Under the pieces are notes generated by a model that was given only the letters and a program-made list of their open reading frames with translations, searched no databases and was not told where the DNA came from. The translations under genes and the position numbers were made by a program. Below, one piece after another: positions 20,502-53,432 of a stretch of DNA of 64,000 bases (position 1 is its first letter; every line of letters starts with the position of its first letter). This DNA comes from Eledone cirrhosa (taxonomy: Eukaryota). The DNA lies in contig OZ024741.1 of assembly GCA_964016885.1 (NCBI GenBank), positions 163,370,001 to 163,434,000 on the forward strand. Direction: 5' to 3'.

Positions 20502-21935
20502 GGCATGTATATTATGAACTTTTTCTTCGGCCCAGATCTTTTCCCAGAATTCTTGCACTTCCTCCTTGGGTGGTATTGATTTAGCAGTTATTGTTGACTT
20601 GCCAATTTTTCTGTAGAAGTTTCTTTGGTGGTTTTTGAACATATTATTGTCCTTATAGAATCTAGATCGTTTTTCAAAGCGCCTTATACGAGCAGCTCTG
20701 GCCGACACTTTTTTCTTGATTTTTTCTATCAGTATGTCTATGTCACTTGTTGATTTTATACTGTATTTTCTTTTCAATTTTCTAAGTTTAGTTTGTTTAA
20801 CATGTTCACCTACTTTGTAGTTTGTTAAAATTTCTATGTCAGATCGGAGAAGGTTTATTTGGCGATTGGTGTTCTGTTGCCAAGTAGATTTCTTGTGGGA
20901 ATTCCTTTGTTTTTTCATTTTCACTCCACATAAGTTAGTGGTGATTTTAGCCGATGCATAATAGAGATGCATCAGTAATGTTTAGTTTGTTTGTGATGAT
21001 AATGTTTTTGAGAATTGTGTTAGTCTTGTGTATTATCTTTTGGTTCTGTTTGGAGTTCTGGATCTTAGGGAGGGTGTCTCGTTCCCCCATGTCAGATTCT
21101 TTCATTTTCATCCATTTGATCATAATTTCCTCCTTCAAGTAGGCAAGTTCATTCTTATTCATTTCTTTATCATTTACGATCTCATTGTTTTCATCTTCAG
21201 CATGCACTCCCTCCACTTGTTCGATCCTTTCTTTAATTTGTTCTGCTGTCAGTGATTCCGCCCCAACCCTGGGATTCGCAGTGTTACAATTTACCTCGTT
21301 TTCACTGACACATGTTTCATTTTCCCTTCGCTGACTTTGTGCTAATAGCTTTATCTGATCGATTTCTATATCAGTTAGTAACATTTTTTTAACAATATTT
21401 CTTCGTATATTGGTTAGTCTGTTACTGTCAATATAGCCTCTGTTTTCGGGATGTTTCTTTTTCCAGTTGATATATGTCTGTTCTGTATTCGATCTATTTG
21501 ATGGGTAGTACATGGCAGTGTAGAAATCCTCAAGGACCTCTTTATTGTCTTCCCTTGACCATTTTTCTCTCTTTTTCTTTGGATTTCTTGGTGGTGAGCA
21601 TGGAGGGCCAACAGTAGGAGTATTCCAGTTATGGGAGGTCTCCAGCTCCGAAGTGATGGGAAGGTTTGAACCATTAGCTGATTTTTCGACCCTAATCTGG
21701 TTCCTCTCTGAGGGACGCGGCCCTTTTTAACCCGGGTGACGGCCGATCCGGTATGAGATTTTATCATTTGACATTTACTTTATTTTGTCGCGTTTTATCC
21801 TTAACCGCCAAAGGGTAATCATTTCGTGTTACCACTTCTAGAACGAGTGTCAACCAAGACTAGAGGGGTCGTCCTCACCTAGAGACACGGATTTACCCCG
21901 CCGGCCGCCATCCCGGTATTTCTTGGTCACGGCTT
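20499..21935 (-). mobile_element. R4/Dong-like family 1, 5' part (5' UTR and N-terminal ORF)
   Basis: ORFs 20487-20972 and 20947-21513; 20499-20773 duplicates 19136-19410; ATG at about 21774 preceded by a GC-rich UTR. Confidence 0.85.
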
Positions 21936-22899: not shown

Positions 22900-25800
22900 C
22901 TTCGCTACACCAGAGGAAGCCAGAGCACACTCCATTGCACCACTCCGCAGCGACGAAATCACATTGATGCCCACATATTGCGGCCAGAGAATCGTAAAGT
23001 TTCGAGTTGGCCAGGTTCCACCCTCGGTGGAGATGGCGTGGCTGAAGATTCAACAACCATACTCAACGTGATACGAATAAGATAGGAAAATTGGACAGGG
23101 TCGAGGATGGAGCTAATCATCCAAACAAACCACGAAAGCGTTGAGGCCATCCCCGATGTAATAGACCTACCCATCTACCTGTGACTGTCGAAGGTAGGCG
23201 CCCAAGGTGTCATGGATGCGGTGACAAGACGCACCTTAAGGCATTCTGCCCCCAAATTACCAAAACAGGCACGCGCCCACCCATTTCCCCACGCCGTGCC
23301 ACGCAACTGGAGCAGACAAACAAACAAAGAACACAGTGGCAGAAGAGAAATCACCATCCCCAACAACAAAAACACCATATCTTCCACCACCCACAAATCC
23401 AATGGAAAGCATACCCCTTCCTGATATAGCTAAATCGGACAAGGAGTGCGATGAGGTCGAAGAGTGGAGTACTATTCTAACAAAAAAAGGAAGAACTTCC
23501 TACCCTCATCTCCCCCCAAAAGAAAAGAGGAAGAAAGAGCCTTCAACAAAAAGAAAACGAAAACAACCCACCTCCTCTACCACCATCAACAGCCACACCC
23601 CCACAGCCACCTACACCATCACCACCACAAACACAAACACCACCGCCACCGCCACCACCACCGCCGCCACCACCACCACCACCCTTACCATCTACCCCAT
23701 CGTCACCTCCAACAACACGACAGCAAACACAGAAAACACGAACACGCCAACAGCAGACACAATACACAGCCATAGACACAGACAACACAAAGCTTTTAAA
23801 TTACATTCAACACCACAGCAACATCACAGAAACAAACTACGTACAAACCACCAAAATTGCACGCCACACACACATAAAAATAATAGAAATTACACACAAA
23901 AATTACATAACATAAAAAAAATGTTCCCCACATCAATTGGAGACTACTGAGGGAACATCACCAAAAGAATATTCACGGATATTCTCGCGGATAAACCCAC
24001 CAATGGTCGGAGGGATGGATGACCCACCCCGTTCCTAAAGAAGAGCCACAGGTAGTTTTTTGTACCTCTCCCCTCTCACTTGTTTTCCTCCTATCCTAGC
24101 CAACATGGCTACTCTTAGGTAGCATAAATGTACGTGGCCTGGGGTCGTTAAACATAGATGTGGTGGCCATCAGCGAGACCAGAATCTTCGAGGCACGGGC
24201 CTTCGCACCGATCTTCGGCGGCTACGATGTGTACGCATCTCCCAGCCGTCATGGATCGGGGGGAGGAGTTGCTATGCTTTTTCGGAGAGGTTTGGATCTC
24301 GCTAAACGGGCCATCTTCCTGGACCCAGAAGGTAAGTTGGTGGTGCTGGACGTGACCAGCGGAGACGTGCTAGCTTTCAGGCTAGTGGCCGTCTATGCCC
24401 CGACAGGAGCAGGGCGGCCTGATTTCTTCCGGCGTCTGGAGACCTTTCTTGGAACGTCCCGCTCTTTAGTGTTAGTGGGCGACTGGAACGAGATCTTAGA
24501 TGCACGCTGGGACTGTGTGGGATTAGCAAGAGCCTTACCAACCTGCTCAGGCGTTTTGAACTGTCTGACAGGTACCGATTGGATTTCCCGAATGTGCCAA
24601 TGTGGACTTGGACAAACCGCATAGGGTCATCCAGATCATATCCAGATAGAGTATTTTTTAGGGAAATAGATAGGTCTAGCATAGGCTGTCCAGAATTGAA
24701 GATAGTCAGCTTCACGGATCACACATTCCTGATCTGTGTGGTTGACTTAGATAGGCTTCATAGACAAGGACCCGGCTACTGGAAGCTAAACGCGTCTTTA
24801 CCAACGCACAAAGCCTACAGAGACCGGATTAGCGAACTAGTTAAGCGGGCGTTGACGGGGGCCATCGTCAACAACAAGTAGTGATTTGCTTTGAAAAGAG
24901 TGATTAGAATAGAGTCCATTAGGTTTAGTAAGGCTTTAGCTATAGATAAAAATAGAGCAGAGGGAGAACTAGTTAGAAAATTAGACGAGGCGCTTAGCAA
25001 AGGCATCGCGACCGACGTACTTGCGTTGAAATTGGCCTTTGAACAATTCTTCAATGTAAACCACGAAGGCTGCGTTGTCAGAGCTAGGGTACGTGCTCTC
25101 AGACACGAGGGGACGAAAGCCGTTCAATGGGCCCGAGTGGCGGAGGCGCGTCGTGGCAACAAAAGCCACGATCCGGTCTTTGGTGGACCACGACGGGCGC
25201 ATGCTACTCGATCCTGGGCAAATGTGTGAAGCTTTCCAGCGACACTTCGCTCAGCTGTTCGGGGGCAGCGGCGGACCGGATCGGGGGATGGACTTTAGTG
25301 TCTTCCTCGACGGACTGCCGCTGCTCCCGGCCATTGAGGCGGGGTGTTGCGAAAAGGCGATAACAGCCGCTGAAGTACGGGAGGCAATGACTGGCTGCAC
25401 AAGGGGTAAATCGCCTAGTTTGGATGGTCTGTCCTATGAACTTTGCGTACAAATACCAGACTTGTTCGGAGGCCTCTTGGCGGACATATACTGCAACTGG
25501 CAACAGAACGGGAGCATTCCCAGCTCTGTGAGCCGAGGAGCGGTGGCGCTGCTGAGAAAGGGTCCGAACAAGGGGGATAACATAGATAATTTCAGGCCCA
25601 TAACTCTGCTAAACACAGAGTTTAAGATTTTGGCCAAGGTGCTAGCAAAGAGGTTGGCGCTTGTCGTTGGTGGTCTGGTGGGAGAGGCGCAGACATGCGC
25701 CATTCCCGACAGATCCATCCACGACAACCTCCACCTCATGCGATACATCGTAGAGAGGGTAGCTAGGGAACCTGGCACGGGTGGGTCTTTGATCAATTTA

Positions 25801-27647
25801 GATCAGTCGAAAGATTTCGATAGGGTCGACCATCGTTACCTAGCGGCAGTCCTGAGGGCGGCTGGCTTTGTGCCCGTCTTCAGAGGCTGGATTGCTGCAA
25901 TGCACAGCGACATCTGCTCTGTGGTGAGAGTGAACGGTCATCTTTCGAACCGTTCAAGATCATGCGCTAGGTCCGCCAAGGATGTCCCCTCTCGTCCCTC
26001 TTGTACGTATTGACTCTCGAGTCATTACTGCACAAACTGGAGACGTTGAGAGGGGTCCCACGGGAACTAGGATTCGGAAGATCCGTGTCAGCATATGCGG
26101 ACAATGTCGCCGTAGTGGTGTCGAACGCCAAACACATCGAGCCGATCGGCATTACACTAAGAGAATACGAAGCGGTGACAGGAGCAATGATCAACTAGGA
26201 TAAGTCTTTCGTCCTGCAGCTCGGCACCTGGAGAGGCAGGTCCATGCCGTCCAACAGCGGCGTCGGGCGCTGGACGGACGGGCCGGTTAAATTGCTAGGA
26301 GTCTGGTTCGGTTCGGACCTCCAGACGGGCAAAAACTGGGACGAGGTGACGAGCAGGGTGGCTTCTGTCACCCAGAAATGGGCGGAGGGGAAGCTATCTC
26401 TGAAAGGTCGAGCGGGGGTGGCTAACGCGTACATCGCGTCCGTCATCTACTACCGCCTGACCGTCGTAACTTGTCCTAAGCCCGTCTGACTGCGCTGGAT
26501 CGTTTGCTCTTTCGCTTTTTGTGGAAGGGACGCGCTCCGATCGTCAGGCGGTCCATCTGCTGTCAACACCCGCTACGTGCATGGCTGGGCATGCCGTGGC
26601 TGATGATGCACAGACACGCGCTCAGGCTACATCTCCACCACTTCCTCGACGGTGATCAGGTGTGGTCGCCGTTTGCTAGACGCGTCTTTCCCCAGCTCGT
26701 CTCCTTGACGGAGCTGCAGTCCTGGGTTAAGCGAAGACCGAGAGGAAGCGCTTGGAGACTGGAATGTCTTCAGGCGCTCACAGCCCTCAACCAATCGGGA
26801 AATGTGATCGGTGGAAACTCCACCTCGGTGTTCTATAGAAGATTAGTGGAAGGGAAGAGTGACGACGTACTTGGGGAGACTCTAGGCGTCGACGAAAATC
26901 AACTAGCCAATCTCTTCGGAAGAACTTTCGGGCCGGGGCCTATGGACAACTTCTAGGCATGGAGGTGCCGTCAGCCGGGCATGTCCGTGATGCGCGCAGG
27001 GCGACGAAACCGTCCTGCACGCACTCGTCCAGTGTCCGTGCATTGCTGACTTGTGGGTTAATGTCGAACATCTGCTGTCACGTGTAGAACGGATCCGACT
27101 ATCAGCTGAGTCCATCGTGAGGATTGCCCCGCCCTCTTCCTTTAGCCGGGAGAGGCAGGCAGTTTTTAACTCTCTGGTGGCCATGGCGAAAGAGATAGTA
27201 TGGTGGACACGTCTGAAAGGGCTGAAGACGAGCACTTTCCTCTTCGGTGATGCCCTGATTAACTTTTTCAGATTTCATTTGAAAAGGAAATTCAGGGTAG
27301 AGAGGGAAGTGCTCTCTTCCCAGCATTTTGTTGAAAGATGGGTGAGAGAAGCAAGTATGGCCCGAGTGAATGGGCCTACTCTGAGTATATGTCTGTAAAT
27401 TAAAGGTGGAAAACTGGGAGAGGGCACTTGCCCTGGTGGTCAGGGTCACTGTGGCCTTTTAATGGGCTTTCTCCACAAATGTCCCTCGGAAGTCTCCCCC
27501 CTATTGGGGAATTTTTCATTGTTATTTTTTATTACATCTTCTGTTTTTGTTTTTTACACGCAGAAATGCCCATTTGTACCGTCCTGTATTGTCCTGTACT
27601 GTCCTTAATGTCTACTTTATGTAAACCCTTGTGGTTAATAAAGAAAG
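22900..27647 (+). mobile_element. Tx1/L1-like LINE (partial ORF1 with zinc knuckle; ORF2 APE-RT), decayed
   Basis: ORF1 CHGCGDKTHLKAFC (CX2CX4HX4C); ORF2 from 24105 with NVRGL, VAISET, VAVYAP, LVGDWN, GPGYWKLN, KSPSLDG, FRPITLLN, DQSKDFDRVDH, SAYADN; AATAAA and (ATT)n tail at 27648-27673. Confidence 0.92.
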
Positions 27648-27674
27648 CATTATTATTATTATTATTATTATTAT

Positions 27675-27752
27675 CCCTTACGGGGTCGATAAAATAAAGT
27701 AGCAGTAATGCACTGGGTAATTGCTGGCCTTGTGACTAAAGTAGAATCAATT
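27675..27752 (+). mobile_element. SINE 3' fragment between the Tx1 and Dong tails
   Basis: Matches the SINE core and tail at 42180-42258. Confidence 0.75.
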
Positions 27753-27762
27753 ATTATTATTA

Positions 27763-30700
27763 TTCTTTGAGTCTCAGTCATTGATGTTAGTTAACTGGAA
27801 AGTTTGTTGAAATGAATATCAAGCCATTACCTGCAGCCTCATATTCAGGACGTATCGGAGGGTTCTTGCTTTTCCCAGCAAGCATGCCTTTTGAAGCGTT
27901 CCAAAAAGCGTGAAGAGGCCAATTTTCTTTAACCATCCCTGGAAACTTTTTGAGATAGTACCTAGTGCGCCTATGACAATCGGGACCACTTTGACTTCAT
28001 GGCAGTTCCAAATCCTTTTTACCTCCCACTTTAAGTCCTGGTATCGGTTAATTTTCTCCCTCTCCTTCTCTTGCACTCTCGTGTCGAATGGGCAGGCCAC
28101 ATCCACAATCAGGCACGATCTTTTTTCTTTGTCCACAACCACCAGGTCAGGTCTATTGTGTTCCAGTTTCTTGTCCGTCTGTATCCTAAAATCCCACAGC
28201 ACCTTCACCTGATCGTTTTCTATCACCGACTCTGGCTTATGCTCATACCACTTCTTAGAATGTGGTAAATTGTTTACTTTGCATAGGTGCCAGTGGATCA
28301 CCCTGCCCATCACATTACGTCTCCAGCCCTTATAGTGAGTCTGGGCTAGGTGTTTACACTCGGATACAATGTGAGCCACAGTCTCCTCTCTCTCTCTCCA
28401 CAGATCCTGCACAGTGGGCTAGCCTCCTCCTTGTAAATATGGTGTTTCAACCACTTCGTTTTGAGGGCCTGCTCTTGCGCAGCCATTAACATTCCTTCTG
28501 TAGCCTTTTTAAGGTCTCCTCTTTTCAACCAGTTCCATGTCTGTGGATCTCTGAATTCAGTTTTCTCAAAGAAGGTACTATGAAGGGATTTTTCATGAAG
28601 GCTACTCTTTCTCCTTGTTGTTATTTCCTCCTTGGACATCCCCTGGTCTATTGTCCTCTCCTTCAGTACAGTTCTGAGCATTGGCTCCTTACTATCAGTC
28701 ACGTATTTGTGTAGGTTGTTTTTCTCCATCTGAATACAGTCATCTATGCTGATAAGACCTCTTCCACCTTCAGATCTCCTTAAGTAGAGTCTATCGACAT
28801 CACTCCTCTTGTGGAACATGTTGTAGATAGTCAATAGCTTCCTAGTCTTCCTATCCATTTCTTTTTGTTCAGCAACATTCCATCTCAGAATTCCTGCACT
28901 GTACCTAATAATAAACACAACTCGGGAATTTACTGTACTTATGGCATTCCTACTGTTCAGATGTGACTTTAATACGCTCCTTACTCTCCGAATGTATTCA
29001 GTTCTTATCAATTCCTTCATTTTTTTGTTCTTGATGTCATCAGCCTCCAGAACACCCAAATACTTGTATCCTTCTTCAGTGTCAATTTCCTTTATCATCT
29101 CACCTGTTGGTACCTGGATTCCGTTACTTCTACTCAATTTACCCCTCTTCATCACAAGGACTCCACACTTACTAATATAAAATTGCATACATATATCATT
29201 GCTGAAAATACGGACAGTGTCAACAAGCACATCCAACTCCTTCTCACTCTTCCCCAAGAGCATAAGATCGTCCATGAAGAGGAGGTGATTGAAGGTAAGC
29301 TCTGCCTTTCCCAACTTGTATCCTGCTCTCACTTTTCACAGTATAATGGTCAGGAGCATCAGGGCAAGGACAAACAACAGAGGGAGGGGACAGACTATCT
29401 CCCTGGAAGATACCTCTCTTGATCTTCACGCCTCCCAAGGATTCTCCAGCTGATGTTAACTCTGTTTCCCAGGACTTCATACTTTTGCCCAACAACTGTC
29501 TGATGTTATCTGCCACCCTGAAGATCTCTAGGCTTTTGGTGATCCAAGAACGAGGCACCATGTCAAACGCCTTTTTGTAGTCTATCCATCCCATGGCAAG
29601 ACCAGTGTGTCTCCTCTTGCAATTCCTCTATTACCATCTTATCAATAAGTAACTGGTCCTTTGTACCACGGGACTTCTTTCGGCATCCTTTCTGTTCGTC
29701 CGGTAACAAGTTGTTTGTGTGGAGGTGATGGTAGATTTCCTCAGACATAATGCTTGTCAACAGTTTCCACATTACGGACAGACATGTGATAGGTCTATAG
29801 TTGGTAGCATCATTACCCTTGATTCTGTCTTTCATTATCAGAACTGTGGTACCTTTTGTCAACCACTCCGGTACCTCACCTGACATCAAGCAGTCATTGA
29901 ACATGGTTGTCAGTTTCGGGTGGAGGGATGTTATATTTTTAATCCAATACCCCGGCACACCATCTGGGCCTGGTGATCTCCAGTTGGTTAGTTTTTCAAC
30001 TGTGATACTCAAATCAGTTTGTTGGTGTGCCTGTTCACTAATCTCCTTCTGTACTGTCTCAATCCACACTGCCTGGTCATTATGTTTAACATCCTGCTCC
30101 CATATTCCTCTCCAGAATGTTTTAGTTTGTTCCGCCTCGGGGATCAAGTCGTTGCCTCTTTCTTTCCCTTCAAGCTGTCCAAACAACATCTTCTGGTTGT
30201 TGTCAAACATGCGGTTCTGTCTATACTGACTGACTCTGCTCTCGTATCGCTTAATTTTTGCACTCTTTGCTACAATGCTTTGCTTCAGTTCCTCTATGAT
30301 AATATTTAGCTTTCTACCTCCTAGTTTTGTACTTTATTTCCAGTCTATTTTTAGTGTCTATGTTTTTTAGTGTCCCATTCCTTAGGGACTCAAGCTTTCC
30401 AATGTCATTTCTCATTTCCCTGATTTGACCACTCAGTCGTTTCTTCCACCAAGGCTCTGATCTTTCTTGTTTGTTGTTTCCTCTCGCTTTTATACCAAGT
30501 AATTTCCTCACCGTATTTGCTGTTGCTTTGAGGATATTGTTGCACTGGTGGAGGTTCCTCGCCTCAAGGTATGGGATGACTTTGTTTACCTTAGCTGTTG
30601 TTTCTTTTAACTTTTTCCTGTCTACAAATCTTAGGTTCATAGGTTTCCCACTATCATTGTTCAATTCATGTACCACTAAGTTTAGGTATCAACCAAATCT

Positions 30701-32414: not shown

Positions 32415-32601
32415 AGGATAAAAGAGAAAACACAGGTAAGCATTAAAAAAAGGATTTTATCCAGGTATTTACGACCGTTTCATTGGTAAGTGCAACCTTA
32501 TATTGCTATACTGCAAATAGCAGCCACTCAATAATAATTGTTGTACACGTCCAAATTTTCAAAATAGTGAATAAGTTACTCTTAACACCCCCCTTCTTTA
32601 T

Positions 32602-32681
<80 letters not shown>

Positions 32682-33302
32682 ATCCCTCTATCTCTCCCCC
32701 TCTCTCTTTCTCTTTCTTTCTCTCTCTCTCTCCATCCATCCCACTATAAACAAATTAATTCTCTTTAACTCACTACACTCTAAATCGACGACGTCTTGTC
32801 TACATATATCAAAACTGATCAAAGATTCCTTAAACCTCTACCGCTCCCTCCATCTCAGTTTGTCACCCTACTTCCTAATTCTTCTCCCCCTTTCTCTCTC
32901 TCTATACTACTCCCTTTGTCCCTCCACTTTCTAATTCCTCTTCCTCTCTCTCTATACTAACAAATACAATTCCAAAAAATATTTTTCTATTTATTAAGAA
33001 CTTGTTAAGAGTAACTTATTCACTATTTTGAAAATTTGGACGTGTACAACAATTATTATTGAGTGGCTGCTATTTGCAATATAGCAATATAAGATTGCAC
33101 TTACCAATGAAATGGTCGTAAATACCTGGATAATATCCTTTTTTTAATGCTTACCTGTGTTTTCTATTTTATCCTTTACACTCTAAGATTGAACGTGATT
33201 CTTACAAACTTGTAGAGTTACCCCTAACCGTACGTTGAAACCGTCCATGAAACTGGCTGTCTTAACCACGAACTGGATTACAATAAGCAATTTTCTGCTT
33301 CC

Positions 33303-33595: not shown

Positions 33596-33943
33596 ATATA
33601 TATACAGGGTGTCCCAAAATATATATACACACTTCAACGCCATTCTAATATATATTTCCAGTACAAGTAAACAAAGCGTTTGGGGATACTCCATATATAT
33701 ATATATATAATTTTTGGGGGGTTGTTTTGGAACCCTGAACAATGCAGATGGGCAAATCTCCGGGTAACAGAATCCGTTGGTGAAGAGAGAGATGTAATGT
33801 AAGGGAGTGTAGAATAAGATGTATAGTGTATAGAGGAACGTAGGAAAGAGCGTAAAAAATAAAGATAATATACACACAAACAGCGGACAACAGAGGCCAT
33901 GTAACGTTCCTCTCCCACAGATAACTTCCTCTCCAACAGATAA

Positions 33944-34511
33944 CTTGCATATCGAGTGAGTTAATCGGCCGGGCGCACCGAAAACGATAAATGGAAAAGA
34001 TGAAACGAAATTTCATTTATCATTCTTAGTACGGCTGTTACTTAAATCCATACGTACATATATATGTGTGCATGTATGTATATATATACATACTACTGTA
34101 CGTCTGTATACATACTTATATTTATGGATATTAACGGCTACTCAACCATTAATATGCACAAGGAAAGTATATACTTTCAGACGTTCAATCATCTGGCAGG
34201 AAGGTATACGGTGCTGACGATAGCTAATAAGCTTGAAACTAGTACATCGTTCCTTTGTCAGTGTTGTACAAAAGGGCAACGATGGTTGCTAAACACTGTA
34301 CGGCTTAATTCGGGATGTTTGTTTACAAACAAACCGAGCATTATAATAAATGGTCAGTAAATCCATACGTACATATATATATCTGTGCATGTATGTATAT
34401 ATATATACATACTACTGTACGTCTGTATACATATATGTATGTACGTATACATACTTATATTTAAGTAACAGCCGTACTAAGAATGAGAAATGAAATTTCG
34501 TTTCATTTTTT

Positions 34512-34515
<4 letters not shown>
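33944..34515 (+). mobile_element. Family B copy with rearranged, inverted 5' patchwork
   Basis: 33944-34046 minus-orientation piece, 34044-34123 duplicated plus piece, 34136-34515 main plus copy ending at (TA)n. Confidence 0.85.
34208..34250 (+). ncRNA. Minimal type I hammerhead ribozyme (family B)
   Basis: ACGGTG-CTGACGA-TAGCT AATA AGCTT-GAAA-CTAG-TA-CATCGT; palindromic stem III ACTAGT. Confidence 0.85.
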
Positions 34516-34553
<38 letters not shown>

Positions 34554-36108: not shown

Positions 36109-36152
<44 letters not shown>

Positions 36153-36367
36153 TAAGTTAAAGTGTACATCTACATATGTATACGGAAGTATTAGTATGCA
36201 TATAAATACACACATGTATACATATGTACATGTACTCAGCTTTTCACTAGACACTTTACAGTGAGTGTCAGCTAGTCTGTATGTAACCACACAGGCGGAC
36301 CGGGTTTTAGAGTCATACGAGTTTTCAAGGAAACACATTTCCTCTATTCTCCAGAGGGCCAGACAGG

Positions 36368-36412
36368 AATATTGGACTAGTTTCGATGTTATTACATCTC
36401 ATCAGCAATATT
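36368..36412 (-). ncRNA. Minimal type I hammerhead ribozyme (family A)
   Basis: rc: AATATTG-CTGATGA-GATGT AATA ACATC-GAAA-CTAG-TC-CAATATT. Confidence 0.92.
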
Positions 36413-36836
36413 TACCCATCTTCCGGCTTCTCTGGAGAATTGTAAAAGCACATATCGTTATATGCTTTTTCTATGAAAATTAGTAGTGGGTAGACTAATT
36501 TGCATAGAACGTGAGTCATTGTACGCACCGGTTCAGCGGAAACGATAAAAACAAATAACGAAACGAAATTAAATTTCGTTTCGCTTCTAACTCACTTTTG
36601 TATGACTGACGCTTAAACAATTAAGTTAAAGTGTACATCTACATATGTATACGGAAGTATTAGTATGCATATAAATACACACATGTATACATATGTACAT
36701 GTACTCAGCTTTTCACTAGACACTTTACAGTGAGTGTCAGCTAGTCTGTATGTAACCACACAGGCGGACCGGGTTTTAGAGTCATACGAGTTTTCAAGGA
36801 AACACATTTCCTCTATTCTCCAGAGGGCCAGACAGG

Positions 36837-36881
36837 AATATTGGACTAGTTTCGATGTTATTACATCTCATCAGCAATATT
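36837..36881 (-). ncRNA. Minimal type I hammerhead ribozyme (family A)
   Basis: Identical to 36368-36412, offset +469. Confidence 0.92.
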
Positions 36882-37305
36882 TACCCATCTTCCGGCTTCT
36901 CTGGAGAATTGTAAAAGCACATATCGTTATATGCTTTTTCTATGAAAATTAGTAGTGGGTAGACTAATTTGCATAGAACGTGAGTCATTGTACGCACCGG
37001 TTCAGCGGAAACGATAAAAACAAATAACGAAACGAAATTAAATTTCGTTTCGCTTCTAACTCACTTTTGTATGACTGACGCTTAAACAATTAAGTTAAAG
37101 TGTACATCTACATATGTATACGGAAGTATTAGTATGCATATAAATATACACATGTATACATATGTACATGTACTCAGCTTTTCACTAGACACTTTACAGT
37201 GAGTGTCAGCTAGTCTGTATGTAACCACACAGGCGGACCGGGTTTTAGAGTCATACGAGTTTTCAAGGAAACACATTTCCTCTATTCTCCAGAGGGCCAG
37301 ACAGG

Positions 37306-37350
37306 AATATTGGACTAGTTTCGATGTTATTACATCTCATCAGCAATATT
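37306..37350 (-). ncRNA. Minimal type I hammerhead ribozyme (family A)
   Basis: Identical to 36368-36412, offset +938. Confidence 0.92.
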
Positions 37351-37652
37351 TACCCATCTTCCGGCTTCTCTGGAGAATACATGTGTGTATTTATATGCAT
37401 ACTAATACTTCCGTATACATATGTAGATGTACACTTTAACTTAATTGTTTAAGCGTCAGTCATACAAAAGTGAGTTAGAAGCGAAACGAAATTTAATTTC
37501 GTTTCGTTATTTGTTTTTATCGTTTCCGCTGAACCGGTGCGTACAATGACTCACGTTCTATGCAAATTAGTCTACCCACTACTAATTTTCATAGAAAAAG
37601 CATATAACGATATGTGCTTTTACAATTCTCCAGAGAAGCCGGAAGATGGGTA

Positions 37653-37697
37653 AATATTGCTGATGAGATGTAATAACATCGAAACTAGTCCAATATT
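37653..37697 (+). ncRNA. Minimal type I hammerhead ribozyme (family A, inverted copy)
   Basis: AATATTG-CTGATGA-GATGT AATA ACATC-GAAA-CTAG-TC-CAATATT; GUC cleavage predicted after 37690. Confidence 0.92.
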
Positions 37698-37982
37698 CCT
37701 GTCTGGCCCTCTGGAGAATAGAGGAAATGTGTTTCCTTGAAAACTCGTATGACTCTAAAACCCGGTCCGCCTGTGTGGTTACATACAGACTAGCTGACAC
37801 TCACTGTAAAGTGTCTAGTGAAAAGCTGAGTACATGTACATATGTATACATGTGTGTATTTATATGCATACTAATACTTCCGTATACATATGTAGATGTA
37901 CACTTTAACTTAATTGTTTAAGCGTCAGTCATACAAAAGTGAGTTAGAAGCGAAACGAAATTTAATTTCGTTTCGTTATTTG

Positions 37983-38056
<74 letters not shown>

Positions 38057-38089
38057 CAAATGGAAACTATATTTATAAAACCATATTTA

Positions 38090-38150
38090 TTTCATTATAC
38101 ATATTTCAAGAACACCAAAGCAAATTATGGTGCGCTTTCATCAGATAAAA
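38090..38150 (-). ncRNA. Type I hammerhead ribozyme in PLE pseudo-LTR
   Basis: rc: TTTTAT-CTGATGA-AAGCGCACCA..TGGTGTTCTT-GAAA-T(ATGT)A-TA-ATGAAA. Confidence 0.85.
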
Positions 38151-38595
38151 TATAATATAGATCAGTTTTATAAACAAATATTGACATACCCTTAAAGAAT
38201 TCAACCATGTCGGTTGGAAGCTCCCAGATAGTGGGATTACTAATTTTATTATTGGTCTATTATGCAAATTAGTGTCGGAAAGGTATAAATCCCATACATT
38301 TAAATTAAGCCGTTGGAATAGGGAAAAAAGAAAAGGAAAAAGAAAAAGAAAGAACGAAAGAAAAACAAAAGACAAAAAAGAGAAAGAGAGAAAACCCTAA
38401 GTGAGAGAGTGTTGTATTAACGTAATTTTATGAGATGATGAAGCGAAAAGATAAATATATATTGGATGAATTACGCGAAGTAAATAAAGCGTGGATAAAT
38501 AAATAAATAAATAGTAATAACCGGAGAATTGTATCTAATGTTTAAATTTGATTAAATTGTTGAGATCTATAAATTAAAAATTAAAAATTAAAAGA

Positions 38596-38676
<81 letters not shown>

Positions 38677-39769
38677 CTATCAAAATATATGTTATTATTA
38701 CATAACCTTACATACATTTATTATTAATCATCAACCAACAATTAACTATTAAATTTTTCAATTAACAATAAAACTCATAAGAAATAGCAAAATATATGTT
38801 TAAAATATAGGAATGTTCAGAGATTTTACCGAAGAAAAATCTCTTAGTAATAGCAATACAGCGTGATGGAAAATTTATTGATTTATTTGTAATTTAGATA
38901 CCTCTAAGGATTATATGCTATAAAAGGTAAGATGATAAAAAAAAGTTAAGATTATAAGAGAACCTTATATTATTTTATAGTAAGTTATAATTTTATATAT
39001 TTTATATATTTTATAAATCCACCTGTTATACAGTTGTGACTGTTAAAATATAAGTTTGTTTACTATAACGTCTTAATGTTTAAAGTTTTTCATAAGAATA
39101 TATCTAAAGCATAAACCGTAAGATACCTTTTATATGAGTTCTTTCATAAAATGTATTCAAATTATACATTTCGATATATATATATATATATACACAGATA
39201 TACATATGCATATATACGCACACATAGACACATACATATATATAAATATACATATATATACACACATACATATACACATATACATATAAATATATATATA
39301 TATTACAATTTTTAAAAAAGATATAATTATATAATTTTAAAAGGAATTATATTTTTAAGCAATGTAATTTTTAAGCAATATAATTCTAAAAATATGTAAT
39401 TTTTAAGCAATATAATTTTAAAAATATATATAAGAATATATAGAAAAAACACAGTATAAAATATGAATTATAATTTTTTATAATTTTTTATATCCATCAG
39501 AGGAATTAACAATAAACCTTTTTTTTAGAAACTTTCAGTATGTTTATCTTAATTTTTTATACCCACTTTTAAAAAAAACTTTCAGTATTTTTTTCTAGAA
39601 GAGTTTTCAAGGAAAAATTTTAAGGAAAAAAATTTTTAAGGAAAAAAATTTTTTTAAGGAAAAGATTTTTAGGAATAATGTTTTATTCATTTAAGAGAGT
39701 TTGTGGCAGTCGTATGAAGGAATCTAATGATTTATCGATAGGTTTAATAAGATGAATTATATATTACAT

Positions 39770-40767
39770 TTAAAATTTATATTTAAACGTTGAATTTAAT
39801 CTATGTTTGCAGTAACTGAAAAGATTGTTCCATAAATTCACAGGATTTTTGCTCTTTAATATAAAGAATATTTCCTCTTTAATATAAATAATATTTCCTC
39901 TATACAAAGAGCACAATTTTCCGAAGAGGCGTTAAATGGAGGAGCTTTGGAAATAATATTCCAAAGTAAATAATAGTTAATGTTCTTTAATGTTAGGTCC
40001 CATAGCTAGATAGAGAAGTTGAAGATTTTTTATTTATATTCGTAAAAGAGAATTTATGGTTATTAAAGCGGGATTTAAAGTCTGTGGAAGTAGAACCTAC
40101 ATAATTAAATGAATTTAAATTAGTTTTTACATTACAATTATATACTATATTTTTAGCTAAACAATTGTTATTTAGCGGACAGTTAGATTTATTTCTACAG
40201 TTACATTTATCAAAATTCAAGTTACTAGGAGCCGTATTATTAAATTGGATATTGCTGGGGTTGTTAATGGTATTCTGGTTAGGTTTTAAGTTTCTATTAT
40301 TAATTCTATTAATATTCTGCGCTAAATTACTGGTGGTTGAATAAGTCAATTTTATAGTATGTCTATTAAATATTGAGTAATATCTAGGGAAGCATTTGTC
40401 AAGAGCTTTAAAGAATAGTTTAGCAATAGGATTTTTAATATTTAATGAGAAAGGAGGAGCGAACCATAATATATTCCGAGTTCTATTTCTTTTTTTTGCT
40501 TTTCGAATTATTGTAAGGTTTTCTATTATAATTGTTAAAATTATGGTTATTTGTTATATTATTATTATCAATATATTTAATTTTATTACTATATCCAGCT
40601 CTACCTAACGCTTCGTTGTAATATTGTGCTTTATCATCAAAAATATTCTTATTAGCTGAAATTCTAGAAATGCGTTGCTGTACAGAATTTACTATTTCTA
40701 CTTTAAGATTAAGGTAATTAAAAAATTGTATAATTTCTTTTCTTTTCCTATTTAATTCACAGTTATT
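39770..40767 (-). pseudogene. PLE RT-thumb, linker and GIY-YIG remnant
   Basis: ILWFAPPFS, TYSTTSNL, CNCRNKSNCPLNNNCL, NIVY, YVGSTSTDFKSRFNNH, SYCKHR; frameshifted. Confidence 0.9.
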
Positions 40768-41005
40768 ATCCTTAGAGGTATCTAAATTACAAATAAATCA
40801 ATAAATTTTCCATCACGCTGTATTGCTATTACTAAGAAGAGATTTTTCTTCGGTAAAATCTCTAAACATTCCTATATTTTAAACATATATTTTGCTATTT
40901 CTTAAAAGTTTTATTGTTAATTGAAAAATTTAATAGTTAATTGTTGGTTGATGATTAATAATGAATTTATGTAAGGTTATGTAATAATAACATATATTTT
41001 GATAG

Positions 41006-41106
<101 letters not shown>

Positions 41107-41710
41107 TCTTTTAATTATATATTCTTTTACTAATATATAGATCTCAATTTTTAATTTTTTATTTTTTATTTTTTATTTTTTATTTTTTATTTTTTATTTT
41201 TTATTTTTTATTTTTTATTTTTTATTTTTTATTTTTTATTTTTTATTTTTTATTTTTTATTTTTTATTTTTTATTTTTTATTTTTTATTTATAGATCTCA
41301 ACAATTTAATCAAATTTAAACATTAGATACAATTCTCCGGTTATTACTATTTATTTATTTATTTATCCACGCTCTATTTACTTCGCGTAATTCATCCAAT
41401 ATATATTTATCTTTTCACTTCATCATCTCATAAAATTACGTTAATACAACACTCTCTCACTTAGGGTTTTCTCTCTTTCTCTTTTTTGTCTTTTGTTTTT
41501 CTTTCGTTCTTTCTTTTTCTTTTTCCTTTTCTTTTTTCCCTATTCCAACGGCTTAATTTAAATGTATGGGATTTAAACCTTTCCGACACTAATTTGCATA
41601 ATAGACCAATAATAAAATTAGTAACACCACTATCCGGGAGCTTCCAACCAACATGATTGCATTCTTTAAGGGTATGTCAATATTTGTTTATAAAACTGAT
41701 CTATATTATA

Positions 41711-41771
41711 TTTTATCTGATGAAAGCGCACCATAATTTGCTTTGGTGTCCTTGAAATATGTATAATGAAA
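41711..41771 (+). ncRNA. Type I hammerhead ribozyme in inverted pseudo-LTR
   Basis: TTTTAT-CTGATGA-AAGCGCACCA TAATTTGCTT TGGTGTCCTT-GAAA-T(ATGT)A-TA-ATGAAA. Confidence 0.85.
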
Positions 41772-41939
41772 TAAATATGGTTTTATAAATATAGTTTCCA
41801 TTTATTAATATATTGTATTTTTACTTCAAAAATTTGTTGAGTGCTTTATATCAGTTATAAAAATATTTGCTTGTTGTATCCCAACAAATTAAATATAACT
41901 TCTACATATAATATATATATATATATACACAGACATACA

Positions 41940-47022: not shown

Positions 47023-47149
47023 TGTAGGAGGTGAGTTTTATTGTAGTACAATAAAGCAATGCAGATATCGGATAAGAAGCACTCTACAGTTTGTGGGACT
47101 GGAGTATGCATAATATAAGATCAAAAGATGGTTAAAGGAGTTCCATATA

Positions 47150-47216
47150 TTTTATTATGCGCATTTCAAAAACAAACATCATCAAGCAATAATATTTGTG
47201 TTTTCATCAGATAAAA
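47150..47216 (-). ncRNA. Type I hammerhead ribozyme in PLE 3' end
   Basis: Reverse complement of 53366-53432. Confidence 0.9.
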
Positions 47217-48644
47217 CAGGAGAACATGATATGAAGGCTAAAAAAACACTTGTTGATAGTGCAGTTTTAAATCAACATATGAAAAGTGGTTTTAGATTGA
47301 TGTGTGATATTGGGAAAAATATTTTATTTAGAGAGGGGGGGGGGGAGAAGGATGAAAAGGGAAGGAGATGAGAGGGAGAGATGGGTGATAGAGAGAAAGA
47401 GATAGTTTTTATAACTGAGAGGAGATATATTTTTTACATAGAGGGGTTGAAAACCGTTGGAAGATACTGTATAAATTAAAAATTTTGAAAATTAACGAAG
47501 GGAGGATATGTGCGAGGAAAAAATATTTTATTTAGGGAGGGTGGGGTGGAAAGGATGAAAAAAAAGGGGGGAGGAGATGAGAGTGAAGGTGGAGAGGGAG
47601 AGATGGGTGATAGAGAGAAAGAGATAGTTTTTATAACTGAGAAAAAGATATATTGTTTTAATATAGAGAGGTTGGGAACCGTTGGAAGATAATGTATAAA
47701 TTAAAGGAATTTGAAAATTAACGAAGGGAAATTATGTATGAAGATAGAGAGAAAAAAATAATAATTGTGGGTGAATATTCTAACGTCAAAAGAAGAAATG
47801 TATGTATTGTGGCAATTTCAAAATTAGCGAAGAGAAAAATTGTTAAGGTAGAAGGATTTGAGAAGTGTAGAAGGATTTGAGAAAAATAATGTGAAGTTAA
47901 AGTTTGTATATTGAATTGGTATGTATTAATAATGAGTTCGTTGATGGGGAGAAAAAAATAATAATAAATTAAGGATGAAATTGAGATTAAAAAGATTTAT
48001 GATAGAGAGAAAAAATAATAATGATTGCGGATGAATATTCAAAATGTCAAAAACAAATGTTATTATTTTACGAAAAGATAGAATGAGGGTAATGAGTAAA
48101 CAAGTATTATAGAGTGTATAATGCCCTTTAAAGTAAGGTAGATGGGTATATTTTAAAGAGGTGTATGTATATGTGCCTTTGAGAAAAGATTCTAAATTGA
48201 TAAAGAATTGAATATTAACTGTATACTTTGTGAAAAGTTCTATGGAATTTATGCAGGCAGATAGAAAAATTGTTAAGGTAGAAGGATTTGAGAAGTGTAG
48301 AAGGATTTGAGAAAAATAATGTGAAGTTAAAGTTTGTATATTGAATTGGTATGTATTAATAATGAGTTCGTTGATGGGGAGAAAAAAATAATAATAAATT
48401 AAGGATGAAATTGAGATTAAAAAGATTTATGATAGAGAGAAAAAATAATAATGATTGCGGATGAATATTCAAAATGTCAAAAACAAATGTTATTATTTTA
48501 CGAGAAGATAGAATGAGGGTAATGAGTAAACAAGTATTATAGAGTGTATAATGCCCTTTAAAGTAAGGTAGATGGGTATATTTTAAAGAGGTGTATGTAT
48601 ATGTGCCTTTGAGAAAAGATTCTAAATTGATAAAGAATTGAATA

Positions 48645-50561
48645 TTAACTGTATACTTTGTGAAAAGTTCTATGGAATTTATGCAGGCAGATAGAAAACA
48701 AATCTGAGCGTCTATTTATTATAGATTCTAGGTTAGAGATAATGGTAAATTTTTCATTTAGGCAGAGATTACAGATTTTAGATAGAGAGCTGTTCAAGTA
48801 TGAGGATGCAGAAGAAATCTTTTTCCAAAAGATGTTATATTTAATGTTTTTGTCTTTTAAGGACCATATGAGTTCTGAGAGAGCAGTGTTAGTTCTTTTA
48901 AGTTTGTATTTGAAAGATGAATGATGATTATAGAGACGAGCTTTAAAAGAGGTGGAAGTGGAGCCAAAATAGGTGAAGGAATTGGTGCTAGTTATAATTT
49001 TACATTCATAAATTAAGTTTTTATCGAGGCAATGGTTGTTGAGAGGACATTTATTTTTAATGCGGCAGTTGCAATTAGAGAGATTATTAATGAGTGATCT
49101 AGTGTTATCTATAGAAGGAATTGGATTGGAGAAGTTGTTTGCGATAGGAATAATAGGAATAATAGTTTCTTGATTTAGAGTTGGATTATGAACATTTAGC
49201 GAAGTTGTGTTTGACGTTGTATTTGGGTTTACAGAAGTTAGCCTAGGGTTTACAATGACGTCGGGAGTACTATTACTGTTATTATGAAATTCAATATTGG
49301 AAGGAAGAGATTTAGTATTTAATATTTTGTTGTTGTGTTTAGAGATGATGTTGGAAATATTGGAGGATGTAGAATACGAAAATTTGATGGTGTGTTTGTT
49401 AAATATTTTACTATAGATATGTGAGGGAGGGAAGCATTTATTTAAGGCACTAAAAAATAATTTAGGAATATTGTTATTAATAGAGATGGAGAAAGGAGCA
49501 TTATACCAGATTATGTTTTTGTATCTAGGTCTTTTATTAAAATTATTGGAATGGTCAAGATTAATTATTCTACTGTAAGTTTTCCTAGAATTTGTTTCTT
49601 TATTATATTTGATTTTATCTGGATAGCCGGCTTTAGAAAGTGCGTTATTATAGTAATTGGCGTTAGCATCAAAGATGTTTTTATTAGAAGATATGTTAGA
49701 TATTCTATTTCCAATATTATTAACTATAGCATTCTTGATATTGGTAGGATGGTTAGATTTAAAGTTAACATAATTAAGATTCTCATTGTTTTTATGGTAA
49801 GGGTAATATAGGCCAGTGTCAAGATTAAGAGATACATCCAAGAAATTAGCTAGTTTGATACTATTATCAAATTCAATTTTTAGGTTATGTTGGTTAAAGA
49901 GATTACGTATATTGTTCTTAATAATATTAAGTTTAACTATATTGCAATTTAGGATAGTAAAGAGTCCATCGTCACGATAAATTCCACCGCGAAGTTGAGG
50001 AATTTTCCGACTCAAAGAGTTCAAAATGAAGATACCAATTAAATCAGTCAATTGGGATGAATCGGATGCTCCCATTGTGATGTCGAAGTTGTTAGAGGTA
50101 TCGGCTCTGGTCCAATATTCGTTGTTGAACTCTAGGATGGTTTTACGTGCGGTGAGGATGATGTGAAGTTCATCTGTGGTGATGTCAGAATATTTAAGTG
50201 CGAAAGATAGAGCATTATTGAGAAGTGAAGGCGAAATGGAGGAATAGTAGCTGGCAATATCGAATTGAATAAATTTTAGTTTGTTTTTATTATCCAATTT
50301 GTTGAACCAGCCAATCACTTCAGAAGTACCAAACCATAAATTTAGGTTTAAAGAAGAGCAATTAGAACTAACCTGTGGGATAATCCTATCCAAGATGGCT
50401 TTACTAACAACCCCCAGTAAAACCGCACGTAAAACCGCACGTAAAACCATCCTAGAGTTCAACAACGAATATTGGACCAGAGCCGATACCTCTAACAACT
50501 TCGACATCACAATGGAAGCATCCGATTCATCCCAATTGACTGATTTAATTGGTATCTTCAT
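48645..50561 (-). CDS. PLE reverse transcriptase + C-terminal GIY-YIG endonuclease (Hydra-clade-like), 5'-truncated; genuine coding starts at about 50417
   Basis: FDIASYYSSI (motif A), ITMGASDS (B), YRDDG (C), FLDV, KSNHP, WYNAPFS, CNCRIKNKCPLNNHCL linker, LIY..YFGSTSTSFKARLYNH, CNLCLNEK, ICLH; the first ~48 aa are read from the inverted arm. Confidence 0.93.
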   Translation of the reverse strand: MKIPIKSVNWDESDASIVMSKLLEVSALVQYSLLNSRMVLRAVLRAVLLGVVSKAILDRIIPQVSSNCSSLNLNLWFGTSEVIGWFNKLDNKNKLKFIQFDIASYYSSISPSLLNNALSFALKYSDITTDELHIILTARKTILEFNNEYWTRADTSNNFDITMGASDSSQLTDLIGIFILNSLSRKIPQLRGGIYRDDGLFTILNCNIVKLNIIKNNIRNLFNQHNLKIEFDNSIKLANFLDVSLNLDTGLYYPYHKNNENLNYVNFKSNHPTNIKNAIVNNIGNRISNISSNKNIFDANANYYNNALSKAGYPDKIKYNKETNSRKTYSRIINLDHSNNFNKRPRYKNIIWYNAPFSISINNNIPKLFFSALNKCFPPSHIYSKIFNKHTIKFSYSTSSNISNIISKHNNKILNTKSLPSNIEFHNNSNSTPDVIVNPRLTSVNPNTTSNTTSLNVHNPTLNQETIIPIIPIANNFSNPIPSIDNTRSLINNLSNCNCRIKNKCPLNNHCLDKNLIYECKIITSTNSFTYFGSTSTSFKARLYNHHSSFKYKLKRTNTALSELIWSLKDKNIKYNIFWKKISSASSYLNSSLSKICNLCLNEKFTIISNLESIINRRSDLFSICLHKFHRTFHKVYS

Positions 50562-51942
50562 TTTGAACTCTTTGAGTCGGAAAATTCCTCAACTTCGCGG
50601 TGGAATTTATCGTGACGATGGACTCTTTACTATCCTAAATTGCAATATAGTTAAACTTAATATTATTAAGAACAATATACGTAATCTCTTTAACCAACAT
50701 AACCTAAAAATTGAATTTGATAATAGTATCAAACTAGCTAATTTCTTGGATGTATCTCTTAATCTTGACACTGGCCTATATTACCCTTACCATAAAAACA
50801 ATGAGAATCTTAATTATGTTAACTTTAAATCTAACCATCCTACCAATATCAAGAATGCTATAGTTAATAATATTGGAAATAGAATATCTAACATATCTTC
50901 TAATAAAAACATCTTTGATGCTAACGCCAATTACTATAATAACGCACTTTCTAAAGCCGGCTATCCAGATAAAATCAAATATAATAAAGAAACAAATTCT
51001 AGGAAAACTTACAGTAGAATAATTAATCTTGACCATTCCAATAATTTTAATAAAAGACCTAGATACAAAAACATAATCTGGTATAATGCTCCTTTCTCCA
51101 TCTCTATTAATAACAATATTCCTAAATTATTTTTTAGTGCCTTAAATAAATGCTTCCCTCCCTCACATATCTATAGTAAAATATTTAACAAACACACCAT
51201 CAAATTTTCGTATTCTACATCCTCCAATATTTCCAACATCATCTCTAAACACAACAACAAAATATTAAATACTAAATCTCTTCCTTCCAATATTGAATTT
51301 CATAATAACAGTAATAGTACTCCCGACGTCATTGTAAACCCTAGGCTAACTTCTGTAAACCCAAATACAACGTCAAACACAACTTCGCTAAATGTTCATA
51401 ATCCAACTCTAAATCAAGAAACTATTATTCCTATTATTCCTATCGCAAACAACTTCTCCAATCCAATTCCTTCTATAGATAACACTAGATCACTCATTAA
51501 TAATCTCTCTAATTGCAACTGCCGCATTAAAAATAAATGTCCTCTCAACAACCATTGCCTCGATAAAAACTTAATTTATGAATGTAAAATTATAACTAGC
51601 ACCAATTCCTTCACCTATTTTGGCTCCACTTCCACCTCTTTTAAAGCTCGTCTCTATAATCATCATTCATCTTTCAAATACAAACTTAAAAGAACTAACA
51701 CTGCTCTCTCAGAACTCATATGGTCCTTAAAAGACAAAAACATTAAATATAACATCTTTTGGAAAAAGATTTCTTCTGCATCCTCATACTTGAACAGCTC
51801 TCTATCTAAAATCTGTAATCTCTGCCTAAATGAAAAATTTACCATTATCTCTAACCTAGAATCTATAATAAATAGACGCTCAGATTTGTTTTCTATCTGC
51901 CTGCATAAATTCCATAGAACTTTTCACAAAGTATACAGTTAA
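50281..51942 (+). CDS. Inverted duplicate of the PLE RT/GIY-YIG ORF, further 5'-truncated (genuine from 50434)
   Basis: Matches the minus ORF from TARKTILEF onward, with MGASDS>MEASDS; lacks RT motif A. Confidence 0.88.
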   Translation: MFLLSNLLNQPITSEVPNHKFRFKEEQLELTCGIILSKMALLTTPSKTARKTARKTILEFNNEYWTRADTSNNFDITMEASDSSQLTDLIGIFILNSLSRKIPQLRGGIYRDDGLFTILNCNIVKLNIIKNNIRNLFNQHNLKIEFDNSIKLANFLDVSLNLDTGLYYPYHKNNENLNYVNFKSNHPTNIKNAIVNNIGNRISNISSNKNIFDANANYYNNALSKAGYPDKIKYNKETNSRKTYSRIINLDHSNNFNKRPRYKNIIWYNAPFSISINNNIPKLFFSALNKCFPPSHIYSKIFNKHTIKFSYSTSSNISNIISKHNNKILNTKSLPSNIEFHNNSNSTPDVIVNPRLTSVNPNTTSNTTSLNVHNPTLNQETIIPIIPIANNFSNPIPSIDNTRSLINNLSNCNCRIKNKCPLNNHCLDKNLIYECKIITSTNSFTYFGSTSTSFKARLYNHHSSFKYKLKRTNTALSELIWSLKDKNIKYNIFWKKISSASSYLNSSLSKICNLCLNEKFTIISNLESIINRRSDLFSICLHKFHRTFHKVYS

Positions 51943-53365
51943 TATTCAATTCTTTATCAATTTAGAATCTTTTCTCAAAGGCACATATACATACACCTCT
52001 TTAAAATATACCCATCTACCTTACTTTAAAGGGCATTATACACTCTATAATACTTGTTTACTCATTACCCTCATTCTATCTTCTCGTAAAATAATAACAT
52101 TTGTTTTTGACATTTTGAATATTCATCCGCAATCATTATTATTTTTTCTCTCTATCATAAATCTTTTTAATCTCAATTTCATCCTTAATTTATTATTATT
52201 TTTTTCTCCCCATCAACGAACTCATTATTAATACATACCAATTCAATATACAAACTTTAACTTCACATTATTTTTCTCAAATCCTTCTACCCTTCTCAAA
52301 TCCTTCTACCTTAACAATTTTTCTATCTGCCTGCATAAATTCCATAGAATTTTCACAAAGTATACAGTTAATATCCAATTCTTTATCAATTTAGAATCTT
52401 TTCTCAAAGGCACATATACATACACCTCTTTATAATATACCCATCTACCTTACTTTAAAGGGCATTATACACTCTATAATACTTGTTTACTCATTACCCT
52501 CATTCTATCTTCTCGTAAAATAATAACATTTGTTTTTGACATTTTGAATATTCATCCGCAATCATTATTATTTTTTCTCTCTATCATAAATCTTTTTAAT
52601 CTCAATTTCATCCTTAATTTATTATTTTTTTCTCCCCATCAACGAACTCATTATTAATACATACCAATTCAATATACAAACTTTAACTTCACATTATTTT
52701 TCTCAAATCCTTCTACACTTCTCAAATCCTTCTACCTTAACAATTTTTCTCTTCGCTAATTTTGAAATTGCCACAATACATACATTTCTTCTTTTGACGT
52801 TAGAATATTCACCCACAATTATTATTTTTTTCTCTCTATCTTCATACATAATTTCCCTTCGTTAATTTTCAAATTCCTTTAATTTATACATTATCTTCCA
52901 ACGGTTCCCAACCTCTCTATATTAAAACAATATATCTTTTTCTCAGTTATAAAAACTATCTCTTTCTCTCTATCACCCATCTCTCCCTCTCCACCTTCAC
53001 TCTCATCTCCTCCCCCCTTTTTTTTCATCCTTTCCACCCCACCCTCCCTAAATAAAATATTTTTTCCTCGCACATATCCTCCCTTCGTTAATTTTCAAAA
53101 TTTTTAATTTATACAGTATCTTCCAACGGTTTTCAACCCCTCTATGTAAAAAATATATCTCCTCTCAGTTATAAAAACTATCTCTTTCTCTCTATCACCC
53201 ATCTCTCCCTCTCATCTCCTTCCCTTTTCATCCTTCTCCCCCCCCCCTCTCTAAATAAAATATTTTTCCCAATATCACACATCAATCTAAAACCACTTTT
53301 CATATGTTGATTTAAAACTGCACTATCAACAAGTGTTTTTTTAGCCTTCATATCATGTTCTCCTG

Positions 53366-53432
53366 TTTTATCTGATGAAAACACAAATATTATTGCTTGA
53401 TGATGTTTGTTTTTGAAATGCGCATAATAAAA
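53366..53432 (+). ncRNA. Type I hammerhead ribozyme in PLE 3' end
   Basis: TTTTAT-CTGATGA-AAAC ACAAATATTAT TGCTTG ATGATGTTTGT TTTT-GAAA-T(GCGC)A-TA-ATAAAA; 11-bp inner stem II, palindromic stem III, AUA cleavage predicted after 53426. Confidence 0.9.

Follow-up and report, generated by a model that had tools for sequence, protein, structure and literature searches.

A 469-nt hammerhead retrozyme family of Eledone cirrhosa with paired fixed ends of the kind left by Penelope-like elements

How a short non-coding sequence comes to lie in tandem on one DNA strand and then, without interruption, on the other, between two runs of TA repeats, is the question raised by a locus of Eledone cirrhosa (assembly GCA_964016885.1, contig OZ024741.1, positions 163,370,001 to 163,434,000 of the forward strand). 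This whole stretch of 64,000 nucleotides, from an AT-rich host genome of 3.0 Gb with many microsatellites, is called the window below. The array, named Family A, is composed of 2.6 + 1.3 near-identical 469-nt units on opposite strands with (TA)n on either side, a single base difference being found across all of them. The left arm measures 1231 nt (99% matches, hammerhead on the minus strand) and the right arm 613 nt, each of them ending outward in an RNA 3' end that abuts a (TA)n run. With phase 1 taken as the first base after the GUC cut of the hammerhead, the layout is as follows:

36109 to 36147, no strand: target (TA)n run on the X side
36148 to 37378, minus strand: left arm, 2.62 units, RNA-sense on the minus strand, running from phase 404 (5' end) to the short site X at phase 227 (3' end)
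37377 to 37378, no strand: head-to-head junction, where the arms overlap by a 2-nt AT microhomology
37377 to 37989, plus strand: right arm, 1.31 units; 5' end at phase 156, 3' end at the long site Y (phase 299)
37918 to 37989, plus strand: X-to-Y "tail" of ~70 nt, found at the Y end of the window copy only
37987 to 38053, no strand: target (TA)n run on the Y side, overlapping the arm by 3 nt

Arm mapping (2.62 + 1.31 units) agrees with an earlier, sequence-only reading of the locus, which had described about 2.6 direct units followed by 1.3 inverted ones, with ends away from the cleavage site (they lie at phases 227 and 299) and without a credible ORF (the longest ATG ORF in the circularised unit, of 36.7% GC, has 64 aa). 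The same reading took the insertion to be young, and the subfamily of the window is indeed 99-100% identical at dozens of loci. An assembly artefact appears unlikely for the window array, since the same architecture with differing inner junctions recurs at 132 of 196 loci.

The two arms together carry four type I hammerhead cores:

36359 to 36419, minus strand: hammerhead copy, core start 36405, cut after 36375
36828 to 36888, minus strand: hammerhead copy, core start 36874, cut after 36844
37297 to 37357, minus strand: hammerhead copy, core start 37343, cut after 37313
37646 to 37706, plus strand: type I hammerhead, core CUGAUGA at 37660, stem II at 37667-37680, GAAA-CUAG-UC, predicted cut after 37690

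The 61-nt motif (folding z -3.1) had been called a perfect hammerhead, a word that fits the core alone; stem I (7 bp) and stem II (5 bp) are as described, but stem III is minimal, a single A-U pair closing a palindromic CUAG loop. An Rfam search of the window gave no match at the gathering threshold, the Hammerhead_HH9 match (31.8 bits, E 3.6e-6) lying below the gathering value of 52. Among 16 natural variants from the E. cirrhosa genome the core is almost invariant, compensatory changes occur at 10 of 16 hammerhead pairs, and 92% of alignment cells are paired versus 34-48% in slid controls, although these variants are related to each other and the shuffle count therefore provides no probability. 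The stem III palindromic loop is retained as CUAG, CGCG or GUAC among families in the genome, and the one-pair form has been described for amphibian hammerheads that need to act as dimers (PMC7229834). Self-cleavage of the Family A hammerhead is predicted from this covariation.

Family A belongs to the animal non-LTR retrozymes, elements of a kind already known. Its tandem type I hammerhead units are non-coding, have a GC content under 45-50%, are dispersed in multiple copies and form a monomer predicted to be self-paired (circular fold MFE -155 versus -95 +/- 5.5 kcal/mol in 60 shuffles, z -10.9). Assignment to the plant LTR retrozymes (type III hammerheads in LTRs, PBS/PPT, 4-bp TSD) was ruled out by the type I topology and the lack of LTR structure, TSDs being unreadable within (TA)n target runs, and identity with an autonomous Penelope-like element (PLE) was likewise rejected, no RT plus GIY-YIG ORF being attached to Family A at the mapped loci.

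The genome contains thousands of units, in arrays dispersed over many contigs. Exact matching found a 38-nt tail motif 7,817 times, the young hammerhead core 1,463 times, Y-end/(TA) junctions 1,908 times and one X-end junction form 243 times. The 196 loci that were mapped, window included (38 best hits, 98 found by Y junction, 20 by internal motifs and 40 by X junction), represent a small share of the family, mostly from contigs 1-2, the Y-junction set being the first on contig 1. Identity to the window unit is 85-92% at 108 and 99-100% at 12 of the 158 loci beyond the best-hit set, a spread that places the window copy in the youngest subfamily. The monomer form is maintained by at least three subfamilies plus one sister family, whose 468-nt unit is 61% identical to that of Family A and shows the same layout with two ends of its own. 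One sister-family locus (L246:861-5252) displays 7 + 2.4 units head to head, with short and long ends at phases 253 and 312; from L044:136-196 onward, a further tandem hammerhead family was observed, with 11 motifs at the locus and a CGCG stem III loop.

The outer ends of the arms were then mapped over these loci. Of 337 readable 3' ends, 328 fall at X (phase ~225-230) or Y (~295-299), ~70 nt apart, and so do 92 of 96 in two sample sets chosen independently of ends. TA repeats come after 316 of the 328; three of the five samples had been selected by a TA junction, and the best-hit set gives the same picture. The tail between X and Y, with a 13-bp hairpin ~12 nt before Y, shows almost no variation between subfamilies. 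Head-to-head pairs number 132 XY, with no XX and no YY, the remaining loci being 9 pairs with one odd end, 6 that run off the fetched stretch and 49 with a single arm, at least 6 of which conceal a tiny X arm. When only the sets unconditioned on ends are considered, 34 pairs are XY and none are alike, for which the chance would be 2^-34 if each arm chose freely. The inverted arm is the rule for Family A and no rare event. At one locus (L234:602-1451) a Family A X arm is joined straight to a sister-family Y (long-end) arm, so that, unless this join is a later deletion, the X+Y rule holds between families as well and the two arms need not be copied from a single RNA molecule.

In contrast with the outer ends, the inner 5' ends are scattered over the unit, and the phases of the two arms are mostly independent. 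Of the 131 independent pairs (L095 and L096 are duplicates), most are joined by a short overlap (79), the others by an insert (40) or bluntly (12). An identical 5' phase in both arms was found in 11 pairs versus 3.1 expected, mostly at internal palindromes (phases 140-206 and 261), the other 120 being evenly spread. Twin priming of the L1 type was rejected (13 seen versus 8.7 expected).

Considering that (i) an inverted 5'-truncated copy, a one-ended tail and a (TA)n bias are described as PLE hallmarks (PMC8557442; PMC3846280), and (ii) for an anole PLE, predicted to be a dimer, cutting and extension of the two DNA strands are reported, as are two internal RT start sites bounding the genomic tail (PMC11167929), the Family A insertions, with their inverted 5'-truncated arm, one-sided tail, fixed 3' ends and (TA)n bias, display the traits of a PLE-mobilised element. 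They resemble the endonuclease-bearing PLEs (Poseidon PAc, PMC11167929; Hydra and Neptune clades, PMC8557442; Adineta Penelope, PMC3846280) in the inverted 5'-truncated copy, and also in the one-ended tail, the two internal RT start sites, the (TA)n targets and the hammerhead upstream of the ends. Unlike PLEs, Family A has no ORF, and its tail is ~70 nt long versus 30-40 in PLEs. All its canonical pairs have one X and one Y, whereas the PLE papers present the tail as optional and report no strand difference in vitro.

Autonomous PLEs of the E. cirrhosa genome share the two-end geometry of Family A. A Neptune-like family, with a 37-nt tail, maintains open frames of up to 784 aa in many copies, with Pfam GIY-YIG and RVT_1 matches and a CX4CxxC linker; it appears highly abundant (15,414 first-look candidates; example L129:1105-3456). 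In the window itself, a Hydra-like PLE lies head to head at 47025-53472, with a 3044-bp inverted match of 99.7%, hammerhead-like motifs at 47210 (minus) and 53372 (plus), and a left end ~85 nt longer than the right. Its 647-aa frame (48645-50588, minus) gave no Pfam match, but contains CxCX5C, CxxC and CxH, which are described as motifs of the Hydra clade (PMC8557442); a 430-nt internal duplication across the ORF end was also observed. Judging from their sequences, intact autonomous PLEs are present in the genome. Nonetheless, no PLE ORF was attached to any Family A locus in the arm mapping of the 196, no same-sense PLE ORF without an intervening (TA)n run was detected in the 49 single-arm flanks, and neither unit nor tail showed similarity to 55 PLE 3' regions in sampled loci, a small part of the PLEs of the genome, tail alignments being at shuffle level. 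A Neptune-like neighbour joined to Family A at L084 (Y plus short end) is an ambiguous candidate for the partner, being a broken copy ~3% from its nearest relatives that may be an older target, and the joins at L039, L108 and L198 are as ambiguous. Priming of both DNA strands in the manner of PLEs is nevertheless highly probable, whichever the template.

Several other elements were noted in the window. A second head-to-head element (38048-41905) has a hammerhead-like motif similar to that of the Hydra-like PLE, at 38144 (minus) and 41717 (plus), and ends ~92 nt apart; the (TA)n next to the shorter of these ends is the one that holds Family A. A sister retrozyme family with core CUGACGA and cut GUA has copies at 13157-14183 and 33941-34530, related pieces lying near 54789-55142; their hammerheads are:

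13422 to 13482, minus strand: sister retrozyme hammerhead
13830 to 13890, plus strand: sister retrozyme hammerhead
34200 to 34260, plus strand: sister retrozyme hammerhead

LINE-like fragments with RVT_1 matches on both strands span 25060-30333 and accompany a 1074-bp duplication (19437-20508 and 27750-28821). At 2325-4105, 32415-33175 and 53550-54787, (TA)n runs flank further duplications, some inverted or direct in orientation.

Regarding the RNA that was copied, 440 of 449 arm passages run through the hammerhead cut site, which excludes the cleaved linear monomer as the main template, and 53 of 214 arms cross it two or more times. The 5' ends at the cut (9 versus 4.4 expected, p 0.04) show a slight excess and no pile-up of the sort that a cleaved linear monomer would leave. 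The sequence-only reading had proposed an RNA intermediate, which is upheld, and a circular template, which these crossings make plausible. Young long arms are star-like, with 0 variants in ~9.5 units at L046 and five unshared variants in ~10 at L049, and lineage alleles are fixed across the locus in 173 of 221 cases. Among 48 testable loci, no more than 3 private variants reach fixation in at least two units of both arms. Variants present in both arms yet not in all units, as expected from a linear template, number 24, part of them being alignment noise. Variants restricted to consecutive units, or higher-order patterns, occur at L036, L041, L067, L071, L109 and L120, which indicates that long homogeneous arms can form after insertion; local array expansion weakens the evidence for a circle. 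Comparison of within-locus with nearest-locus distances did not separate circle from multimer. As observations apart, a unit in the middle of a 14-unit arm at L109 bears alleles that belong to a different subfamily, through either gene conversion or a template switch, and Family A arms of 25-30 or more units, where local duplication is likely, lie at C1:95621217-95633003 and C1:5738538-5752087.

Changes fixed locus-wide were polarised on a tree of those 125 loci out of 195 in which enough columns are covered twice, after removal of columns that are palindromic or prone to indels. On the hammerhead-sense strand, small branches contain 39 A>G versus 12 T>C (p 1.8e-4), the branches concerned numbering 27 versus 11 (p 0.01), and terminal-branch ratios per sample of 15:2, 7:2 and 5:2 go in one direction throughout; single-unit variants stand at 44:43. 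The excess is weaker outside the discovery set, where a cruder count in the last two samples gives 13:9 (p 0.28), raw fixed counts for these samples being 5:4 and 13:13. An apparent C>T excess was gone under stricter polarity. At L082, L103, L104 and L194, A>G clusters appear in every unit, with three in all 13-14 units at L082 and five to seven at L104. These clusters may reflect ADAR editing of one molecule, an assignment made from the type of change alone, the A>G sites being hardly more paired than other As (0.65 versus 0.60) and their neighbour preference weak. The A>G bias of locus-wide variants is as expected from ADAR editing plus a monomer bottleneck, and points to the hammerhead-sense strand as template, against the antisense self-priming idea (PMC3846280). 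RNA editing has been named as one possible source of retrozyme heterogeneity (PMC7229834), and a search of the open-access literature found no report of A>G changes fixed across retrozyme units. Altogether a circular template is likely, and a circle is moderately preferred to a linear multimer.

Other origins were weighed against these data. The sequence-only reading had the reverse transcriptase start at random on a circle, with circularly permuted ends, and then switch template to yield the inverted part. Arms that cross the cut site would suit it, and equal 5' phases in both arms, seen in 11 of 131 pairs (3.1 expected), could arise via fold-back, but same-phase cases lie mostly at palindromes and the arms end at two fixed positions (328 of 337 3' ends), always paired as X plus Y, with inner phases mostly independent. 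Such 3' ends mark the outer ends as priming ends, unpermuted, and one-X-one-Y pairs are the PLE "tail" signature, so that the flip is likely due to two priming events and not to one template switch; the random-start version is largely refuted and barely credible. That reading had also named, as the finding that would speak against it, fixed ends attached to a PLE ORF, of which the former were found and the latter were not (0 of 49 single-arm loci). The units might instead be detached pseudo-LTRs (3' ends) of an extant autonomous PLE, and hence truncated PLE copies and no independent family, an idea to which the PLE-type ends and the retrozyme-pLTR matches reported for 21 of 57 Xenopus families (10.64898/2026.07.22.740005) lend some weight; it is very improbable given that no ORF is attached in the arm mapping or in the single-arm flanks, that many-unit arms hold the monomer alone, and that the subfamilies and the sister family retain the monomer form.

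A satellite arising at the DNA level, or an assembly artefact, would agree with the local duplications and with an array known from the assembly alone, but is hardly to be entertained at all in view of the spread over many chromosomes, the exact Y-(TA) junctions, the unique inner junctions, the covarying ribozyme and an A>G bias that follows the RNA strand though the arms occupy opposite DNA strands. The alternative of more consequence has the PLE prime at X and Y on an uncleaved linear multimer, the hammerhead being unneeded for mobility and long or homogeneous arms deriving from long source arrays plus local expansion. The anole PLE preferred uncleaved RNA, its main substrate in vitro, with no strand difference in start site (PMC11167929); a hammerhead with a minimal stem III is a weak ribozyme in monomer form (PMC7229834), and no cleavage was reported for 8 of 9 Xenopus dimers (10.64898/2026.07.22.740005). 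Local expansion is evident, and variants of the outermost units of both arms occur at L061, L102, L184 and L244. Against it stand the locus-fixed lineage alleles, the A>G clusters in every unit, the star-like young arms of 5-10 units, and the conservation, with covariation, of hammerhead and whole-unit length between families 60% identical. This alternative is held to be less likely than not.

The account considered reasonably probable is that the retrozyme is copied into (TA)n by a PLE protein that primes both DNA strands, at X and at Y, on a probably circular 469-nt monomer. Tandem Family A loci would be transcribed, neighbouring hammerheads would cut as dimers via the palindromic loop, and the monomers would be ligated into circles by a host ligase and sometimes A-to-I edited. 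One cDNA would then begin at X and the other at Y on a PLE dimer, each rolling round the template, until the two cDNA ends anneal through microhomology; some long arms may have been enlarged after insertion by local duplication. A bolder version, put forward tentatively and with somewhat less than an even chance, has the PLE dimer obliged to start one cDNA per tail end on one circle, so that each insertion would be a two-armed rolling-circle product of a single molecule, and ADAR edits on that molecule would enter every unit of both arms and would drive the sequence evolution of Family A.

Earlier work has described animal non-LTR retrozymes together with their circular RNAs and has suggested that they are mobilised by PLEs (PMC7229834), and a 2026 preprint links retrozymes to pLTRs by phylogeny and calls the mobilisation mechanism open (10.64898/2026.07.22.740005). 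Family A resembles these elements in its tandem non-coding type I units, its GC of 37% and the absence of LTR, PBS and PPT (PMC7229834), as well as in a strongly self-paired predicted fold and the PLEs in the same genome; with the axolotl HHR_Amex1 it shares the one-pair stem III and the palindromic tetraloop. Its 469 nt exceed the 170-400 nt of the 2020 paper (PMC7229834) and fall inside the 51-972 bp of the preprint (10.64898/2026.07.22.740005). Neither of these sources describes arms set head to head, a pair of fixed ends or a preference for (TA)n targets; the words "inverted" and "microsatellite" have 0 occurrences in the 2020 main text (PMC7229834), and a search of the open-access literature found no account of head-to-head retrozyme insertions with two fixed ends or a strict X+Y rule. 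Chlamys elements such as MRC1 (PMC8557442) are similar as non-autonomous PLE dependants with multicopy head-to-tail insertions, but they resemble their autonomous partner at the 3' end, unlike Family A as compared with the 55 PLE 3' regions, and are mostly without hammerheads.

Family A thus bears on two questions, namely which machinery moves animal retrozymes and how the inverted PLE insertions with a one-sided tail originate, as it presents the complete PLE insertion signature without an ORF, in thousands of copies and under a strict one-X-one-Y rule. It also defines a 469-nt substrate with two exact start sites for in vitro tests, and edits fixed across units and arms constitute a per-locus record able to distinguish circular from linear templates. 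If two cDNAs do roll round one circle, Family A would provide genomic proof that animal retrozymes are copied from circular templates and mobilised by PLEs, and would account for the head-to-head insertions of PLEs in general.
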